Part shown: one piece after another, positions 1 to 28,274 of the stretch
Layout of the letters: each line of letters opens with the position of its first letter
Position numbering within the stretch: position 1 is the first letter of the stretch
Assembly (NCBI GenBank): GCA_951406725.2
Contig: OX597817.1
Span: forward strand, 138,074,001-138,138,000
Reading direction: 5' to 3'
Source: Octopus vulgaris
Taxonomy: Eukaryota
Length of the DNA: 64,000 bases
Translations under genes and position numbers: made by a program
The notes under the pieces: generated by a model
Told to the model about the DNA's origin: nothing
What the model saw: the letters and a program-made list of their open reading frames with translations, nothing else
Databases searched by the model: none

Positions 1-189
1 TATAGTGCATAGAGCTGTACTTTGTAGAGTACCTGGATACAGGGAGGGAGAAGAGAGACAAACAGTGATGCAGGCAGACAGAGAGATGAGTTTGTGCCGG
101 ACGGTAGCATTGAAATACCATATGAAGAGGAATCCTTCAAGGCTGTCCAAACGAAACAAATAGTTAAGGGACTCCTCTGATGTTACCCC

Positions 190-400
190 AAATTGGCGGG
201 CCTCTATGAAGTCGCTCTTCCAGCTAGAAATAGCAGACAGATCTCCCTGAAATAACACTCAACTTTCGTTAAGTAGGGAGGACACATTGACTGATGTATT
301 TCTGATTAAAAAAATAAGATGGTCAACGGTCGAAACATCTTTAATTAGTGGATCTGCTAATGAGGATTAATTTATGCGGTAATTACTCAACAACAACAAT
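190..400 (+). repeat. Degenerate dispersed repeat (family D, probable retroposon 3' part)
   Basis: CTAGAAATAGCAG...ATCTCCCTGAAATAACAC...AAGATGGTCA...CAACAACAAC. Related reverse copies at ~1955-2023, ~18660-18870 and ~49500-49570, and a forward copy at ~43260-43400. Confidence 0.5.
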
Positions 401-824
401 AAACAAACAAATACGTTGAGAGGTAAATAGAAATAATACCTCAGGTGACAGTAAGTTTGGTGACAATGAAATTAAATACAAACTGTACCACAGTTACGTA
501 ACTCTGAAGTTAAAAGAAGACTGAGCCAAACGCTGGTCCCTATAGTGACGTCATTCTAAAGTTATGGAAGACTACTTTCTACGTCATTCTCTACGGTTCT
601 GTCTACAACATTCACACCACGGAGGTTGGGGAGGAAAACTATACACTTGTCTAGAAATGCACTCAAACATTCGAATAGAGACACATGGCTGCATTCATAC
701 ACACATACATACTTCTACACCAACAGACACCGTTTTATCCTTTACACATACAACTATTGCACAATCATTTACATGGACACATAGACACACAACTCATTTG
801 CAAACATAGCTCCGCACGCGTAGA

Positions 825-929
825 CACACACACACACATACATATATATACATACACATATATGTATGTATATGTATATATATGATTATATATATATACA
901 TATTTGTGCATATATATAAGCATACACAG

Positions 930-984
<55 letters not shown>

Positions 985-1137
985 CATACATACATACCTC
1001 CACACACATATATACACACACGCACACATATATATATATTTATACATACATACATACATACATACATACATACATACATACATACATACATACATACATA
1101 CATACATACATACATGCATACATACATACATACATAT
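825..1137. repeat. Compound (CA)/(TA)/(TACA) microsatellite
   Basis: Direct reading; explains the overlapping YIYI/HTYI ORFs. Confidence 0.97.
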
Positions 1138-1504
1138 AGTTAATTAAGTTACGTAAGCCACATATGTTTCAAAAAAACAGAACTTGTGAAAATATAATTT
1201 ACTCGAACAACAAAAGGTTGTTTTTGTTTATGTTTTTTTTTTGTTTTTTTTTTTGTTATCCGAACGACGTGTGTTTCCACTTGTAGCTTCAAGTTTTATG
1301 TACGGCTATGTGATTAGATACCAAAGTATGTGTATGTATGTCTATATATCTGTATATTTTCATGTGCCATATCTGTAGATAGGTATGATGCGGTACGAGT
1401 GATGTGTGTACGCTTGTGAATTGAGATGCATATCTATTTGAAGACATATTGTGGTATTTGTGTGTATTTGTATGTATTTGCTCCTCTCTCTCTTTCTTTC
1501 TATC

Positions 1505-1563
<59 letters not shown>

Positions 1564-1684
1564 GCGTGGTATGGTGTTTGTTTGCTGTACACTATGTTTT
1601 TTGTGTATGCATATCTGCGTGTACGTACGCACGTCATTACACTTTGTGCCAGATGTAAGGCGATTTCGTCTGGTTTAGGTAATA

Positions 1685-1745
1685 CAGACAGACAGGCAGG
1701 CATGCAGACAGACAGACAGACAGACAAACAGATAGATAGATAGAC

Positions 1746-1804
<59 letters not shown>

Positions 1805-1806
1805 CA
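1685..1806. repeat. (CAGA)n/(TAGA)n microsatellite
   Basis: Direct reading. Confidence 0.97.
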
Positions 1807-2478
1807 AAAGCTGCAAGTACGATATAACAACGATGTATTATTATTATTATTTTTGCTTTGTTTTGTTTTGTTTGTTTGTTGTTTTTTTTTTGGGGGGGGG
1901 GGTGCAGGAGGAATAATCTTCAAAATTGTTTCCATTATATCACAGCTTATTTCCTGTTGTTTAGCCCCGACTCAACTCTGATTTCGTGTTCTATGATTAA
2001 AGCCGATCAGCAGTGACCATCCCTTATTAAGAAGTTTTGAACGTTGCATGTATATATTCGTGTGTGCTAGTGTCTATGTGTGTATGTGTGTATTATGTGT
2101 TAATGTATAAAGATAATAATTTAAATGAAGGAAGGGGACGCCAAATTAACTTTACAATTGTTTCGGCAAACAGACGATACCGTTTATTCCACATCTCATA
2201 CAATGTTATGTAATAAAGGCATAACATGTGGATATATGTAATACTATTCTTATAGTCCTTTCATTTCTTGAGATGACATGGTTTCAAGGCAGGATCGAAT
2301 ACATGAATGTTTTGGGATATGCTTATTTGGACGTGTTTACAATATGTAAATGGGGCGAACACTTAAAGCTTTCACGTGATATCACCTGTGAGATTTAAGA
2401 CAATTAATCATAATGAAATGTATAGAAATATATTACGATAAAGTCAAATTAAAGTCGGCCCGAAGTTATCATATAGAT

Positions 2479-2535
2479 CAGTGGTTCCCAATCTGGGACC
2501 TGGGGTCCGCAAACGTAGTACTGGGGGTCCGTGTA
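2479..2535 (+). mobile_element. hAT-type MITE terminal fragment
   Basis: Starts CAGTGGTTCCCAA followed by repeated GGGGTCCG subterminal motifs, typical of hAT/Charlie-like MITE ends. No partner end found. Confidence 0.45.
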
Positions 2536-2566
2536 CTTAATTCAAAATACATTTATATGTATGTGT

Positions 2567-2629
<63 letters not shown>

Positions 2630-2676
2630 CATATATATATATAAATATATACACATATATATATATATATATATAT

Positions 2677-3325
2677 ATACACAACTATGAGAGAGAATCC
2701 ACTATGTGGACGCTCTTACGTTAGATATAGATCCTCAAAGGGACTCAACCACTAAGAATTGTTCTCAAGGAATAATTCAACACACCAAGAATGTAAGCGA
2801 GCAGGACAAATGAAAAATAACGAAAATATAGATTAACCCATACAATTGTTTCACCGTTAATAAATTATGTAATTTTACTTACATAAATATCCTCGGATCA
2901 TCAGTGGAGTACGTCATAAAATATAATTTGAGGAACTGCACGCCATATATTTACACGAGGTCAGAGAGACGAACAGTTCGGCCGATTATATTCACAGTTA
3001 CATTCAAATGCTCTCGTTCTGGCGCGCTAAATTCCCGGAAATAAATACTGCATAAGTAATTTACTGCAGTAGTTTACGCCGGTTTGAGAACATATAAATT
3101 TATAATTAAAGTAAAAATGAGGGTGAAAAAATTGGATATTAATTTAATAACATCAATTTAAACACCAGTGGCCTAGCGTATAAAAGACTGAGATTCAGTA
3201 AATATTATTAATACACAACTATGAGAGAGAATCCACTATGTGGACGCTCTTACGCTAGATATAAATCCACAAAGGGACTCAACCACTAAGAATTGTTCGC
3301 AAGGAATAATTCAACTCACCAAGAA
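2677..3325 (-). mobile_element. Non-coding 1.2-mer element with 115-bp direct repeats (PLE pLTR / retrozyme-like)
   Basis: 2677-2791 repeats at 3211-3325 (period 534, 5 mismatches). Flanked by (TA)n. Contains a hammerhead motif on the - strand. Confidence 0.8.
2835..2910 (-). ncRNA. Minimal type I hammerhead ribozyme motif with extended stem II
   Basis: - strand: ACUCCA CUGAUGA UCCG...UUAUGUAA-GUAAAA-UUACAUAA...CGGU GAAAC AAUU GUA UGGGUU. Intact core, stem I (U)CCA/UGG(G), palindromic stem III ACAAUUGU, GUA triplet. Confidence 0.8.
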
Positions 3326-3428
3326 CTTTAATTATATATATATATGTGTGTGTGTGTGTGTGCGTGTATTTACAAATATACATACATATATGTGTGTGTG
3401 TGTGTGTGTGTATGTATATATATATATG

Positions 3429-3480
<52 letters not shown>

Positions 3481-3482
3481 GA

Positions 3483-3629
3483 TGCAGGAGTGGATGTGTG
3501 GTAAGTAGCTTGCTTACCAACTACATGGCTCCGGGTTCAGTCCCACTGCGTGGCACATTCTACTATAACCTCGGGCCGACCAAAGCCTTGTCAGTGGATT
3601 TGGTAGACAGAAACTGAAAGAAGCCCGGC

Positions 3630-3689
<60 letters not shown>

Positions 3690-3875
3690 GTATATATATA
3701 TATATAATGTATGTATGTATATATATATATATGCTTATGTTTGTGTGTGTGTCTGTGCCCCACCATTACTTGATAACTGATGTTGGTGTGGTTACGTCTC
3801 CGTAGCTTACCAGTGCGATAGAATAAGTAGTAGCCTTACAAAGAATAAGTCCTGGGATCGATTTGTTCCACTACA
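3483..3875 (+). mobile_element. tRNA-derived SINE family B with internal microsatellite
   Basis: A-box-like TGGATGTGTGG and B-box-like GGTTCAGTCCC. Body GGATTTTGGTAGACAGAAACTGAAAGAAGCCC and tail GAATAAGTCCTGGG recur at 29772-30062 and 11520-11680. Confidence 0.8.
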
Positions 3876-3918
3876 AACTGAAACAAGAAAAGAATAAAAG
3901 AATATGTATATGTATATG

Positions 3919-4001
<83 letters not shown>

Positions 4002-4004
4002 AAA

Positions 4005-5200
4005 AAGAGTGAAAAACTACTGAAGGCTTGTGTCATATGGTTAAAGAATATATTTAAGTCGTTATGTTAGAAATATGTTATAAAATTTTGTGTATAGTAA
4101 CATAGTTTTTGTAGAAATAACTGGTTTCGTATTTTCTTTTCAAATTTCTTAAATTTCTTTACCTACATCGTGTCATGTCTTCGTTATGTTGGGAAATATG
4201 GTGTTCCATGCAGGGGAAGGTAATCAGGGATTTCTTCCGGTATAAGGGAGATAATCGCTTTATATTTTATTTCAATGAGATGTGTTTCCTTGTTTAAAAA
4301 TGTTAGAAATGGTTCAGTTTTGGCTTATATTTTTCAATGAAGAATGTTCCAATATCACATTGATAGAATGGAAAGATTATAAATTGTGGTAGTAGTTGCT
4401 TTGCGCATTTCTCAATATGTTCACTAAAGGGTGTCATTCTGTATTCTGAGAATGCAATCTGTTGTCGATGCAGAGTGCATCTGCGTCTGAGCGATAATCC
4501 CGTGGATCCTATGTTGTTTTGGTGGCAACCTAATATATATGACATATATTAGGTTTTCTGAAGCACAAGTAAAATTAGATTTGATCTTGAATTTGTGTCC
4601 CTTTTTGAAGAGGAATTCTGATCCTTTTAGAAGGTTTGGACATGTTGCGCAGTTTGGTCTACCACATTTTTTTACTTTTGCATCCGTTATTTCAGAAAAC
4701 AATTTTGCCTTTGTGAGGATCTTTTTAGTGATTTAGGTTGTTTGTAGCTTTTAATGATTTTATGTATGTTTAAAATTTCCTTTAATTTGGGGTCCTTATG
4801 AAGCATTGGTAAATTCTGGGTGATGATGGGGAAGGCTTCTTTGTTTCTGGGGTTGTATGTGGATATGTACGGCAGTATTTTCGGGGAAGATGTGTTGCTG
4901 TGTTGAACTTTCCTTAAAGTTTCTATGTCGATTTCTGTTGCACGTCTGATTCCATGCTCTATGAGTTGAACTGCGTAGTGTCTGTTAATTAGGGTGTTTT
5001 TTGAGTTCTTGTAGTCTAAAGTTCCTGGTATTTTGTTCTGACACTATTGTGTATATCCTTCTTGCAAGGTTGAAAGGGACGTTTGTTTTAGTGTGTCTTG
5101 GGTGGCATGAATCAAAAAGTAGGTATTGTTTGGTGTCTGTGGTTTTGTAAAATATGTCTGTTTCTATTTTTAGGTTAATTTTTTAAATTAGTATATCTAA
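4005..5200 (-). mobile_element. Penelope-like retroelement, 3' half (RT thumb + GIY-YIG endonuclease), frameshifted
   Basis: - strand peptides IETDIFYKTTDTKQYLLFDSCHPRHTK, KKCGRPNCATC...FTCASENLIYVI and GCHQNNIGSTGLSLRRRCTLHRQQI...FSEHIEKC. Confidence 0.88.
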
Positions 5201-5418
5201 GAATGGAAGCTCCTTTTGGCTGTACTCTATTGTGAACTGTATGTTTGGGTTGACGCTGTTCAATAGGTTTTTGAAGAGAGGATGGAATCAAACGTGCAAC
5301 AGAAATCGACATAAAAGAGTTGTTCTGGGTATCCTTGAATCCTTCATCCTGACCAGATGACCACTCCATCTGAGCCTTTGCTCATATACATACATACATA
5401 CATACATACATACATACA

Positions 5419-5453
<35 letters not shown>

Positions 5454-5454
<1 letters not shown>

Positions 5455-6337
5455 GGGTGCGGTGAATAAACTGTCGTTTAAATTACGCAAAAATGAAAAT
5501 AAAAGACATCTCATTTTAAAAGATATATTTACCAAAATTACATAAAAATATCCTGAAATACTAAAGAGTAAATTTATTCATTAAATCGCCATTGGCTCCA
5601 ACCACAGCCTCTGGACAACTTCGGAATCTCTTGCAACTCTTCTTGGCTATCTCCTTGTTTAAGTTGGTGAATGCTACCATAATCCTTGCCTTCACCTCAT
5701 CTTTGGTGTTACAAGAAGTTTTGTTGGTCTCTCGCTCAGCTGCGTCGCACACATAATAATCAAAGGGGGTTGCGGTGTGTTGGCCAGATGTTAGGGGTGA
5801 TGTGGTTGCAGAAAGTATCAGACAGCCATGACTGAGTTCTCCTGCTTGTGTGGAATGGTGCTGAATTCTGTTGCCAGATATAAGGTCTTCCTGCAGCCAC
5901 CCTCTTGACTCAGGGCAGAACTATCTCTTCTAGACATGTGATGAAGGCCTCCGTGTTGAATCTGAAGCCGTGTAGGAAAATGAATGGAGACATAACTTCA
6001 CCATCACTTGTGATCACTTCAAACGCCATGATGTTAACTAAATGTTTGATTTTTATCACTCTTGGTACATGTCCTCAGACTGTACTGTCCTTCGACTGAC
6101 ACTCAAACACTCTGAAATTTTCGTATCAGAGCTTCCAGTGCGAATGCCAAGTAGTATAGCATGTCGTTTCCAAATTTCTGGCAGATTAAATTGCGTCATG
6201 GCGGTGTATTTCTCACAGACGGTGCCCAACTGACCCTACTATACTGTATATAGTAGGGTCAGTAGGGTCATAAACAAACAATGCACATGCGAGAAAATAA
6301 AAAAATATAAAACGCTGACAATTTACCCATCGCACCG
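5454..6337 (-). mobile_element. Tc1/mariner-superfamily transposon, internally deleted
   Basis: Imperfect TIRs GGTGCGGTGAATAAACTGTC (from 5456) and GACAATTTACCCATCGCACC (6317-6336). Decayed transposase QQNSAPFHTS...IWPTHRNP(fs)DYYVCDAAERETN, a WPPxSPDxNPxD-like motif. Confidence 0.8.
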
Positions 6338-6348
6338 ATTTTTCTCTG

Positions 6349-6353
<5 letters not shown>

Positions 6354-6398
<45 letters not shown>

Positions 6399-6472
6399 CA
6401 CACATCCATCCATCCATCCATCCATCCATCCATACATACATACATACATACATACATACATACATACATACA

Positions 6473-6503
<31 letters not shown>

Positions 6504-6570
6504 GCATATATATACATATATAAATATGCGTGTGTGTATGTGCATGTATTTGTGTATGTGTGTGTGTTGT
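6354..6570. repeat. (TA)/(CATC)/(TACA) compound microsatellite
   Basis: Direct reading. Confidence 0.95.
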
Positions 6571-7184
6571 GAGTAGTAGTGGTGAAGACTGTTAAAGATG
6601 TATTAGCTTAGGTTTATAGTTGTGGTTATGCCGGTTGGTATGTTGGTTACGTTGATGGCGGTTAAGACGGTAATTTTATTAATGAGACGTCTTGTCTGTG
6701 GTGGTGGGCAGGAGGTGTGCCAGATTAACACCTAATTTCCAAATTTCACGCCCGGCGACCAACGTCAGTGGATTAATGACCACCGCTCAGATGAATTTTG
6801 CACGAAATCCTTTGACACCTTCACAACATCTTCACAATCCATACAAACATTATGGCCAGCACGATAAGCAAACAGTCGTTCATGTCTGTGATTATTTTAT
6901 GATTTTTCTTTTACTTAAGCGAACAACCCAGAATGTCGTTGCTGTTGTTGATGATGATAATGATGATGATGATGATGATGATTGTTGTGATTATTTTCAA
7001 AGGAATCACGTTTATCAAACATGTCGGCTAGGGAAGCCAACTTTTCAGACTCGTTCAGTAAACAAACACACGTGCAAGCTTACGCCCAAATAGATAATGA
7101 CACACACTAGCACACAACACACTCGCTTACAAATGCACACACGCACACACAAACACACACACACGTCTGAGTGTGTGTGTGTAT

Positions 7185-7282
<98 letters not shown>

Positions 7283-7519
7283 AACAGCAACTCCCGAAAC
7301 TAGAAACTTTAAGTATTCCCCGAGGCCAGAATTAGAATCACTATGAAGGACAATCACGCAATACCCATCTTCTATGTCATACAATATGCAAGAAGACCAC
7401 CGTTAAGCAAGAAACCAAGACCACGTAAACAGATTAAGCGCTGCCAGAATGAAAGACTGCGAAGAAAAAGAGAACACGGAATATAAAAAGTTTACAAACA
7501 ACAAGCACATCAAACATAT

Positions 7520-8830
7520 ACTTCCATCATCGACTGCTCATGTTGGAAATGTGGTGACGCTAGATGGGCTTCCATATGGAGTACATGACCCCAGTTGCCA
7601 GACCACATCCGTGGTTGATCTCCGGGGTCAGGTTTCCATTGCTGATGACTGTGGAGCCCAGGAAGATGAAGGAGCTGACAAACCCAACGACGTCGAAGCC
7701 AATATGGAGAGGGGGAGAGTTCGGATCTTCTCCAACATGTATCAGTCTCCTCTTCGCCCGACTCACCTGAAAGCATAGATTTACCGATTCTTCTCTGTAA
7801 ATGGTTAGTGCGTCCCTGAGCTGATTGATCGAGTTGTTGAATAGAGTGGTATTGGCCGTATACTCCAGGAAGGTAAGGTAGTAGTCCCCTAAGGTAACAC
7901 CAGAGATCACTCACAGATCTTGGTCATCCGATAATCGAGGGTACAGCCGAAGAGGTCAGGGGTGGCCATGCAGCCGTATCTGGCCCTGTTGTTGATGAAG
8001 AACCAGTCAGATTCCTTCCCGTTCACCCGCATGCAGCTCTCGGCACTGCTCTAGAGCCGTTGGAACAGGGTGCTCTTGGGAAGTGCACCGACAAGCTTGA
8101 AAACTTTCCTGGGGGCTGCGTAGACACCGTGTCAAAACCGCCTTAGGTCGACAAAGGCAAGAAAGAGGTGGCTATCTTTTCGGAACTCCTGTGATGTTTC
8201 AATAATGAGACGGAAAGCAAGAATATTGTCGGCGGCAGATCAATTTAGCATGAATCTAATGGCAGGAAAAGCAGAGTTGTGAAGGGTCCTGGTGAAGAAC
8301 TTGCCCTGTGGTTACGGCAGATGAAATTGTCGCCCCTCCGTTTCCAGAAGAGGAGGATAATGCCCCGGGCCCAGTCATTTGGGAGTCGCTCTGACACCCA
8401 TACGTGGCTGATGATGCAAGTGTGCCACAACAACGACATCTCAGTTGTTGACCTGGAGAAGTTCTGGCTGGAAGAAGCCGAGAGCCTGGTGCCAGCGGCG
8501 ACGAATAACATCAACCAGGTACTCCACATGCTTCGCAGAGATTGTGCCGGTCCCCACTTCAAGACAGCCTTCGTGAAGGATACGTTCCGAGTTCAAATTC
8601 CGCCGAGGTGGACTTTGCCTTTCATCCTTTCGGGGTCGATAAATTAAGTACCAGTTACGCACTGTGGTCGATGTAACCGACTTAATCCGTTTGTCTGTCC
8701 TTGTTTGTCCTCTCTGTGTTTAGCCCCTTGTGGGTAGTAAAGAAATAGGTTAGTTGTCACCAAGGAAACCATCTGCTTCAAACGCTAGAAGGAGCCCTTC
8801 AGCCTTCTTCATTATCACCCACCTAATCCA
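7520..8830 (-). mobile_element. RTE-clade LINE reverse-transcriptase remnant, interrupted by a SINE
   Basis: - strand peptides PNDWARGIILLFWKRRGDNFICRNHR, LEYTANTTLF (decayed YADD region) and VSSFIFLGSTVISNGNLTPEI. Many stops and frameshifts. Confidence 0.8.
8578..8750 (+). mobile_element. SINE family A, 5'-truncated, tail type 1
   Basis: GTTCAAATTCCGCCGAGGTGGACTTTGCCTTTCATCCTTTCGGGGTCGATAAATTAAGTACCAG...AGCCCCTTGTGGGTAGTAAAGAAA; near-identical to the 3' part of 60202-60432. Confidence 0.9.
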
Positions 8831-9216: not shown

Positions 9217-9611
9217 CTAGCAGTATCGCCCGGCGTTGCTCGGGTTTGTAAGGGAAATAACTATATAAGCATTTTTAGAGAGTTATAGCCAAAAAATAGC
9301 AAAAAATGCATTAAAAATGGAAAAAAAATGATGACAAATTTTTTTTTAAATCGTTGACTCATCGTAGACATTTTTAGAGAGTTACTTCCCTTATATAATA
9401 GCGAAAAATGCATTAAAATTGAAAAAATGATGGTAAATTGTTTTTAAAATCGTAGACTCGTCGTAGACGCGCGCTAATACCCAGAAAGGCTCGATATGAA
9501 TCACGACTATAAGATACCCGGTTTTGGTTAAACTGCACCTCAAAATGTGGGAGTAGTTAGGAATCTAAATCGTAGGAAACAGACACACAACTTCACTTTT
9601 ATATATAAAGA
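9217..9611 (-). mobile_element. Non-autonomous Helitron
   Basis: - strand begins TC(TTTATATAT) and ends with hairpin CCCGAGCAACGCCGGG plus CTAG. Inserted between A and T. Second copy at 27885-28274. Confidence 0.88.
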
Positions 9612-9814
9612 TGAGCGAAAGAGACGCTGCTTAGTTCGTTGGTTGTTTGATTAATTATCTCCCTTGTCGTTCTTTACAAGAAACGTCATTAACACTCATG
9701 AATTTTGTTCTCTTTACCGTCGCAGTTTCAGTTGGCTAAATATTATTCTACACTGAATACATTAGGTTTATTTACCAGCGTTTCAATATATAAATATACG
9801 CAAAACCAACCTAC

Positions 9815-20374: not shown

Positions 20375-21412
20375 TACAGTTTCTAAAATGCACCATAAAT
20401 GTTCAATAATATTGAAATCTGGGGACTATGGTGGCAAGATAAGATGTTCAACTTCACTAGAATATTCCTCGTGCCATTCACTAACAACTTTAGCTGTATG
20501 AATTGGTGCATTATCATCCTGAAAAATTGCATTTCCCTCTGGAAACAGTCCCGCAACCATAGGATGAATTTGATCAGATAAAATGCTTAAATGGTCTTGA
20601 CTATTAATTCTGCTATGAAGGGAAACCTTTGGGCTGGCGAATTTCCAAGATATAGCCCCACCAGATCATCACAGATCCTCGTCCATGTTTAACAATTGGA
20701 AGAAGACAGTCTGGGTCAAATGCTTCTTCTGGCTATCTTCACACATATACTCGGTTGGTGTTCAGAAATAAGGTAAAGGATGACTCGTCCGAGAAGATTA
20801 CATTCTTCCACTCCTCTAGGGACCAATTCTGTAGGTTTTTACTCCACTCTAAACACTTTGCAGCGTTTGCTTTTGAAAGTGGTGGTTTTCCGATTGCAGC
20901 CCTCCCGTGATATACGGCTTTGTGCAGCTCCCGGCAAACAGTTTTTATGGAAACTGGATTCCCGAGGTGGTCATTAAGCTCTGCAGTAATTTTGGGAGCT
21001 GTACTTTTGTGATCCTTTCTAACAATTCGCATAAGAATCCGACGGTTCCTATCAGAAAGTTTTTGTTTTCTTCCGGATTTTTGTTTCGACGAAGAGTTTT
21101 TCCCCTCTTTCTCAACAGCACTTCTTGATACACCAAACATTTCGGCTGTTTTCGTTATGCTAGCACCTGCTATATGAGCACCAACAATTTGACCTCGTTG
21201 AAAGTCCAATAGATCTGTCATTTTAATGAATTTTAATTACCTTTTTCTGATAATATCTGAAAAGAAACAACAATTTTAGCAAAACATATTAAACAACACT
21301 AATAATAAATAAAAAAAAACATAAAAATAAACAAGCTTTTGACGGTTTTATAGATATTTCAAAATTATGATGCTGTGGTGCTAGGTGTTTCCATTATTTT
21401 GTCCAACCCTTG
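20375..21412 (-). mobile_element. Tc1-type transposon, 3'-truncated
   Basis: ORF 20739-21221: FQRGQIVGA...KSGRKQKLSDRNRR (HTH), WKNVIFSDES (first catalytic D). Terminus TA|CAAGGGTTGGACAAAATAATGGAAACACC at 21412. Confidence 0.92.
20739..21221 (-). pseudogene. Tc1 transposase N-terminal half (continues frameshifted to ~20380)
   Basis: 160-aa ORF with paired-like HTH and IFSDES motif. Confidence 0.9.
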
Positions 21413-27543: not shown

Positions 27544-27884
27544 GATAAAAATTATAAACCACTACAGAATAGTTCCCGTTTTAAATCACGATCTGTGCGT
27601 GCGTACCTCTGTGTGTGTGCGCGCGCGCGCCTGTACTTGTGCGCGCATGTGCGCGTGTGCAGTGTGCCTATGTATGTGTGCGGGTGTGCGCGTGTTTGTG
27701 CGTATAAATGTGTGTTGTGTTGCGTTGCGTTGTGTGTGTCCATATCTACGTGTACGTCTGTAGCTATTTAAAAACTTGTTTTTCTTTATGCTATGTTCTA
27801 TTCGATCGCACAAAGCGCGGGTCCTACATATAGGGATCGATTGAATACGTACAACTACTGCATAAATATGCCTTATGGTCGATA

Positions 27885-28274
27885 TCTTTATATATAAAAG
27901 TGAAGTTGTGTATCTGTCTACTCCGATTTAGATTCCTAACTACTCCCACATTTTGCGATGCAGTTTAACTAAAACCGGGTATCTTATAGTCGTGATTCAT
28001 ATCGAGCCCTTCTGGGTATTAGCGCGCGTCTACGATGAGTCTACGATTTTAAAAATAATTTACCATAATTTTTTCCATTTTAACGCATATTTTTTAAATA
28101 AAGGGAAGTAACTCTCTAAAAATGTCTACGATGAGTCAACGATTTAAAAAAAATTTACCATAATTTTTTTTCCATTTTTAATGCATTTTTGGCTATTTTT
28201 GGGCTATAACTCTCAAAAAATGCTTTATAGTTATTTCCCTTACAAACCCGAGTAACGCCGGGTGATACTGCTAA
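27885..28274 (+). mobile_element. Non-autonomous Helitron (second copy)
   Basis: A|TCTTTATATAT...CCCGAGTAACGCCGGG...CTAA|T; reverse complement of 9217-9611. Confidence 0.88.

Follow-up and report, generated by a model that had tools for sequence, protein, structure and literature searches.

A 534-nt hammerhead-bearing repeat in Octopus vulgaris as a likely non-autonomous Penelope-type element

Hammerhead-bearing Penelope-like elements (PLEs) and the non-LTR retrozymes of metazoans are the described systems closest to the locus reported here. PLEs of the Hydra clade mostly prefer (TA)n and carry the hammerhead in sense orientation near the 3′ end, and 14 of the 26 rows in File S2 of the same study have a U after CUGANGA and a U before GAAA (PMC8557442). 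PLEs have been described as forming partial tandems, insertions with inverted pieces at the 5′ side and non-autonomous elements joined head to tail (PMC8557442, section 6). The purified protein of PAc, a PLE of an anole, cleaves AT-rich DNA and initiates reverse transcription at an internal position within a stem-loop; PAc hammerhead mutants insert normally, and cleavage was seen only when the protein was present (PMC11167929). Hammerhead repeats of 51 to 972 bp, frequently monomers and akin to the pseudo-LTRs of PLEs, were reported in a preprint that by its text samples no mollusc (bioRxiv 10.64898/2026.07.22.740005). Circles have been demonstrated in coral, mussel and axolotl (PMC7229834), and reverse transcription of circles over more than one unit was proposed in 2014 (PMC4209133). 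The family described here bears on how animal hammerhead repeats are mobilised and on what purpose the PLE hammerhead serves.

The window, a 64-kb stretch of O. vulgaris DNA, contains an insertion that shares features with both systems. Like metazoan non-LTR retrozymes, its unit is short, low in G+C (34%), non-coding and present in many copies, has one type I hammerhead and pairs strongly with itself (PMC7229834); the proposed dependence on PLEs is a further likeness, and the length of 534 nt lies within the range of the hammerhead repeats in the preprint (bioRxiv 10.64898/2026.07.22.740005). Unlike active retrozyme arrays, it consists of 1.2 units with one hammerhead and is a monomer in the terms of that preprint. 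With Hydra/Neptune-type PLEs it shares the partial tandem and a hammerhead in sense orientation, here 164 nt away from the 3′ end (PMC8557442, PMC4209133, PMC11167929), as well as a (TA)n target, no readable target-site duplication, an inverted 5′ piece and more than one start register. It differs from endonuclease-bearing PLEs in having no reverse transcriptase (RT)-endonuclease reading frame between its repeats. Non-autonomous Chlamys PLEs such as MRC1 are likewise non-coding, with pseudo-LTRs and head-to-tail insertions, but their 3′ parts resemble a known autonomous family, and a hammerhead, which the octopus unit has, is absent from most Chlamys (PMC8557442).

As the locus has one hammerhead and not two hammerhead-bearing units in tandem, it was not classed as a retrozyme proper but as what is likely a non-autonomous, retrozyme-like element of the Penelope type. 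Our preferred reading, to which we assign a probability of about 60%, is that of a protein-less retroposon derived from an RNA longer than one unit that was reverse transcribed from an internal start. The kind of element is already described in animals, and the locus adds an example whose cleavage is a prediction. A search for published descriptions of Penelope-like, hammerhead or retrozyme elements in octopus and cephalopods, which did not cover Repbase and Dfam, found none of this family, which may bear another name. Three short motifs of the element had no occurrence in the supplement of PMC8557442, where line breaks could hide them.

Anatomy of the insertion

The coordinates of the features are collected in Table 1. 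The 115-nt direct repeat with a period of 534 and five mismatches that had been annotated initially was recovered with its coordinates, the mismatches lying at 2721, 2730, 2735, 2765 and 2782. If the two repeats were once identical, they have diverged by ~2% per copy since insertion. No further copy of the repeat was found in the window by blastn. The 419 nt between the repeats are non-coding, in line with the earlier claim that there is no credible reading frame: when the unit was read as a circle, the longest ATG-started frame comprised 22 amino acids on the plus strand and 12 on the minus strand. No frame for RT plus GIY-YIG was found between the repeats, and tblastn with four PLE proteins gave matches only at 4300-5275, within a neighbouring element described below.

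Table 1. Features of the hammerhead-bearing insertion and its flanks (window coordinates)
Feature	Position	Strand	Remarks
Whole insertion	2677..3325	-	one 534-nt unit plus 115-nt partial copy (1.2-mer, partial tandem)
3′ terminal copy of 115-nt repeat	2677..2791	-	abuts (TA)n at 2676/2677
5′ partial repeat copy, pseudo-LTR-like	3211..3325	-	ends 49 nt before second cleavage site
(TA)n-rich microsatellite, left flank, insertion target	2566..2676	.	
(TA)n right flank, then (TG)n	3333..3345	.	
12-nt inverted copy of 3101-3112 at 5′ junction, continuing into (TA)n	3325..3336	+	exact reverse complement
Type I hammerhead	2837..2908	-	stem I 2908-2905:2837-2840; core CUGAUGA 2904-2898 and GAAA 2852-2849; stem III 2849-2842
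Stem II	2853..2897	-	U.U 2897/2853; 3 bp 2896-2894:2854-2856; internal loop; 8-bp AU hairpin 2886-2879:2865-2872
Predicted helices across head-to-tail junction 3211/3210	3167..3287	-	3287-3282:3167-3172; 3258-3251:3173-3180
Small predicted stem-loop, junction in loop	3219-3215:3204-3208	-	

The element had been described as inserted in (TA)n. This holds for the left flank; on the right, (TA)n is preceded by the inverted copy of an internal segment. Inverted pieces of at least 11 nt arose in 12 of 5,000 shuffled units, and pieces of 8 nt in 360 of 5,000. We do not propose a fold-back origin for the inverted piece, since the helix suggesting it (3320-3315:3116-3121) gives way to other pairs in the predicted fold of the whole unit. 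No target-site duplication was readable within the microsatellite, and microsatellites dominate the repeat listing for the window as a whole.

The edge at 2676/2677 is likely the position where cDNA synthesis began. This start, which corresponds to 3211 in the other repeat, falls in the loop of the small predicted stem-loop. In four contigs of one sequencing run (X4, see below) (TA)n stands directly before 3108, so that a second start register seems to lie at ~3104-3108, at a distance of ~105 nt from that at 2677; the registers of the Penelope tail lie 30-40 nt apart. At 10 of the 14 joints listed the strand changes, which fits the inverted 5′ pieces of PLEs, though weakly, given the likeness threshold of 82% and the internal hairpins.

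Hammerhead and predicted RNA fold

The intact hammerhead core noted earlier on the minus strand was confirmed as part of the only type I descriptor match in the 64-kb window, and the minus strand was taken as sense from this motif itself. Stem I comprises 4 bp and stem III 2 bp closing an AAUU loop, the 8-mer being palindromic; the cleavage triplet is GUA, and the cut, predicted at 2841/2840, would lie 164 nt away from the left (TA)n end. The stem I, palindromic stem III and AU-rich stem II hairpin of the initial annotation are thus all present, but stem II starts with a U.U mismatch, three base pairs and an internal loop before the hairpin is reached. Minimal type I hammerheads had been cited as background for the locus; the motif is not of that form, as it has a helix III, and the G10.1-C11.1 pair found in minimal PLE hammerheads is absent from it (PMC4209133). 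The U.U at the base of helix II and the 2-bp helix III are shared with HHR_Amex2 of axolotl (PMC7229834), and the form CUGAUGA-U...U-GAAA is that of the 14 Hydra-clade rows mentioned above (PMC8557442). The long AU hairpin in loop II sets the unit apart from the described metazoan retrozymes.

The descriptor was matched by 5 of 3,000 dinucleotide shuffles of the element and by 9 of 60 shuffles of the whole window. Because of the latter number the motif alone is modest evidence at the scale of the window; its weight comes from its position inside a repeat-bounded unit. A search against Rfam gave 93 matches for 1-8000, of which not one reached the gathering score or belonged to a hammerhead family, and one chance match, not to a hammerhead, for 2670-3335. 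The active hammerhead fold was predicted at -9.6 against a local minimum of -12.7, a cost of ~3 kcal/mol. It would make up ~1% or less of the ensemble, with pair probabilities of ~0.01 or less for stems I and III, and the duplex of two palindromes was calculated at -6.4 kcal/mol. A lone monomer is therefore predicted to be a poor cleaver, and a locus with one hammerhead cannot itself release a monomer of unit length.

Variants among the other copies of the unit, which are described in the next section, were compared with this structure. The pair 2895:2855 in stem II is C-G at the locus, but the majority letters of the family in X1, X4 and X5 give U-A. The alternative letters at 2895 and 2855 account for 89% and 92% of the depth in X1, 55% and 83% in X4, and 70% and 87% in X5. 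The letters thus indicate a two-sided change in stem II, the two changes not being phased on one molecule. Among the 40 variants listed (86 further), one alone falls in the core, at the free position N7 (2900). GAAAC is kept by all four loose ends listed for the 3′ part of the core, two of them with a GUC triplet; on the 5′ side two of four keep CUGAAGA and two have an altered U4, so that decayed copies exist.

Compared with shuffled sequences, the unit is predicted to fold with z scores of -4.1 to -5.0, the circle having a z of -5.0. The strongest-folding domain is the 226-nt segment spanning the head-to-tail junction (3325-3100; predicted z of -6.8). Its helix 3258-3251:3173-3180 is also present when the fold is predicted for the circle, and its pairing survives the variants at 3252, 3258 and 3179. 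We then counted variants that break predicted pairs, using 31 of the 40 listed; of the nine left out, eight make up a tenth of the depth in no run but X9, and the ninth is already in the folded copy. At a pair probability of 0.5 three were observed against 7.2 expected (P 0.025), and at 0.8 two against 4.1 (P 0.19), a weak depletion with respect to the modelled pairs. Given a fold across the junction, the working RNA would hold the junction internally, as a tandem transcript or a circle.

A dispersed family in sequencing-run contigs

Part of the stretch is contained in 20 of the 24 sequencing runs listed, which come from nine studies and bear four organism labels. The contigs of four runs were aligned to it at 82% likeness: X1, X4 and X5 are DNA-type runs with organism labels A, B and C, and X9 is RNA by guess, no run being on record as RNA and the contigs telling neither strand, ends nor level. 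The best DNA run may itself be the source of the window. Matches were found in 1,135 contigs of X1, 550 of X4, 1,218 of X5 and 28 of X9. The pieces from other copies tile the unit in collinear order, with overlaps between 2694 and 3268, and continuation into unlike sequence makes up 0.01-0.04 of the aligned total in X1, X4 and X5. In X1 the summed depth over 2672-3269 runs from about 3,900 to 152,000, compared with 20-78 for long contigs; it is no copy number and is read only as many copies. These data indicate that the 534-nt unit is a many-copy, dispersed family common to several related organisms.

Among the 32 pieces listed (2,946 further), X1 record 8 and X9 record 32 extend across the head-to-tail junction at 3210/3211 by at least 31 letters to either side, and shorter overlaps cross it also in X4 and X5. 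X1 record 8 differs from the locus at 15 of 131 nt and thus represents another copy; X9 record 32 has four other letters. Among the pieces listed neither a complete second copy nor a two-hammerhead array was seen, the contigs being short and none of those listed spanning the unit.

X5 record 17 and X9 record 25 are ~85% identical to the unit over its 3′ 165 nt (2672/2694-2836) and continue into 501 and 211 unlike letters, respectively. In X9 record 25 the 3′ half of the hammerhead is preserved, with a GUC triplet, and no contig listed for X9 is deeper (137 versus 3-13). The two may be sister families or the ends of an autonomous partner. A sharp peak of summed depth at 3109-3165 was seen in X4 and X5 (labels B and C) and is far weaker in X1; it may reflect either a derived family of short length or a second site at which starts are favoured. 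Metagenome contigs gave no match to a 20-nt end motif. A hammerhead-like pattern in viral contigs was followed at 120 loci, of which 8 pass a loose descriptor and none is similar to the unit by blastn, and was taken as chance. Alignment of six PLE proteins gave one degenerate metagenome locus (L121), which has no hammerhead match, and none in viral contigs.

Template, mobilisation and neighbouring elements

From the anatomy, family, junction and variant pattern observed, we infer the following steps of movement. A master locus would give a minus-strand transcript exceeding one unit, and the endonuclease of a Penelope-type RT, supplied in trans, would nick a (TA)n tract. The RT would then begin internally at the small stem-loop at 2677/3211, copy one unit, pass the head-to-tail junction and halt 115 nt into the next unit, and the 5′ side would be resolved with the short inverted piece. 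The template would most likely be an uncut linear tandem transcript. The hammerhead would probably trim transcripts only as a dimer or with the help of protein and would not be required at insertion, and the copy at this locus, with its one hammerhead, is likely a dead end.

Reverse transcription past the start of a circular or tandem RNA had been proposed for the locus before. An RNA longer than one unit is retained in our reading, but a circle is not needed for a 1.2-mer, because an internal start on such an RNA leaves the same footprint (PMC11167929). We put the linear template first, followed by the circle, then the terminus of an autonomous element and last a local duplication in DNA, because internal initiation as in PAc would by analogy yield a 1.2-mer without a circle. 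It counts against this analogy that the start loop of PAc is AC-rich, whereas the minus-strand loop of the unit is GU/AU-rich. A true non-LTR retrozyme, in which two-hammerhead arrays cleave themselves, a 534-nt circle is ligated and a Penelope-type RT copies round past its start, is in our view unlikely. The helices spanning the junction, the predicted fold of the circle and the two (TA)n-adjacent registers at 2677 and about 3104-3108 would all suit an endless template, and HHR_Amex2, with the same 2-bp helix III and tetraloop and the U.U, cleaves as a dimer and forms circles (PMC7229834). A linear tandem RNA yields the same features, however, and neither a two-hammerhead array nor a circle was found among the contigs, which are short and cannot show RNA ends. 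Moreover, only one of nine frog dimers cleaved in vitro (bioRxiv 10.64898/2026.07.22.740005), no PAc read stops at the cleavage position and PAc mutants in cleavage still insert as usual (PMC11167929), and the unit exceeds the 170-400 nt of the invertebrate circles (PMC7229834). A join at 2841/2840 in RNA-seq data, suggested earlier as a check, cannot decide for a circle, because the religated junction is identical to the uncut genomic strand. A bolder and doubtful proposal is that the family spreads as a hammerhead-cut circular RNA of 534 nt whose folded junction domain is the landing site of the Penelope-type RT. If it were true, the registers at 2677 and about 3105 would be footprints of rolling-circle reverse transcription in trans, a step proposed by retrozyme models. 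The dispersed family with its defined unit, covarying stems and two registers is material with which a circular can be told from a linear tandem template.

Two further explanations were considered. That the unit is the terminal region (3′ UTR plus pseudo-LTR) of an abundant autonomous PLE, with the 534-nt period being a rare gutted by-product or two joined truncated copies, seems improbable. Summed depth over the 3′ third exceeds that over 2900-3100, as 5′ truncation would give, and X5 record 17 and X9 record 25, which share only the 3′ segment, could be the ends of a longer relative. Against this, the junction recurs in diverged copies, the depth just inside it (3178-3200) is no lower than in the interior, no loose end at 3210 was present among the best 24 of 396, and the predicted junction helix keeps its pairs through three variants. 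Less probable still is that slippage or unequal exchange next to the microsatellites duplicated, in DNA and on the spot, the 115-nt end of an old repeat or of a solo pseudo-LTR; the surroundings are unstable and rich in microsatellites, and the window has this one locus, but the same junction occurs in other copies that differ at up to 15 of 131 nt, and the predicted RNA helices cross it.

A 5′-truncated, frameshifted PLE that ends in (TA)n lies ~670 bp off on the same strand (3995-5310, minus). It retains the RT thumb, a C-X4-C-X2-C linker as in Neptune and Nematis, and a GIY-YIG region; its relatives carry RVT_1 and GIY-YIG domains, and the closest protein (P0002) is 89% identical over a query of 68 amino acids. 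The element shows that an enzyme of this kind once acted on (TA)n here. The initial annotation had taken the insertion to be a non-autonomous, PLE-dependent element; its non-coding, many-copy and Penelope-type nature is supported, as is structural constraint on its hammerhead, but the neighbouring PLE is dissimilar to it. The 3′ part of this PLE had no descriptor match to a hammerhead and no DNA similarity to the 534-nt unit (76 to 157 of 200 shuffles scored equally). The idea that the unit is its displaced 3′ pseudo-LTR was rejected, as there is no similarity and the PLE has its own (TA)n end.

Between the two elements lie short non-microsatellite stretches (3480-3630 and 3750-3890), which we take to resemble pieces of cephalopod SINEs. 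Elsewhere in the window, broken frames at 7400-8650 on the minus strand resemble by eye a LINE-type RT region, for which a Pfam scan of two frames gave no match. A remnant of a Tc1/mariner transposase (PF01498, E 6e-14) was found at 20739-21236 on the minus strand. An inverted pair of 209 nt (9404-9612 and 27884-28092) is 93% complementary and probably represents two copies of a dispersed repeat.
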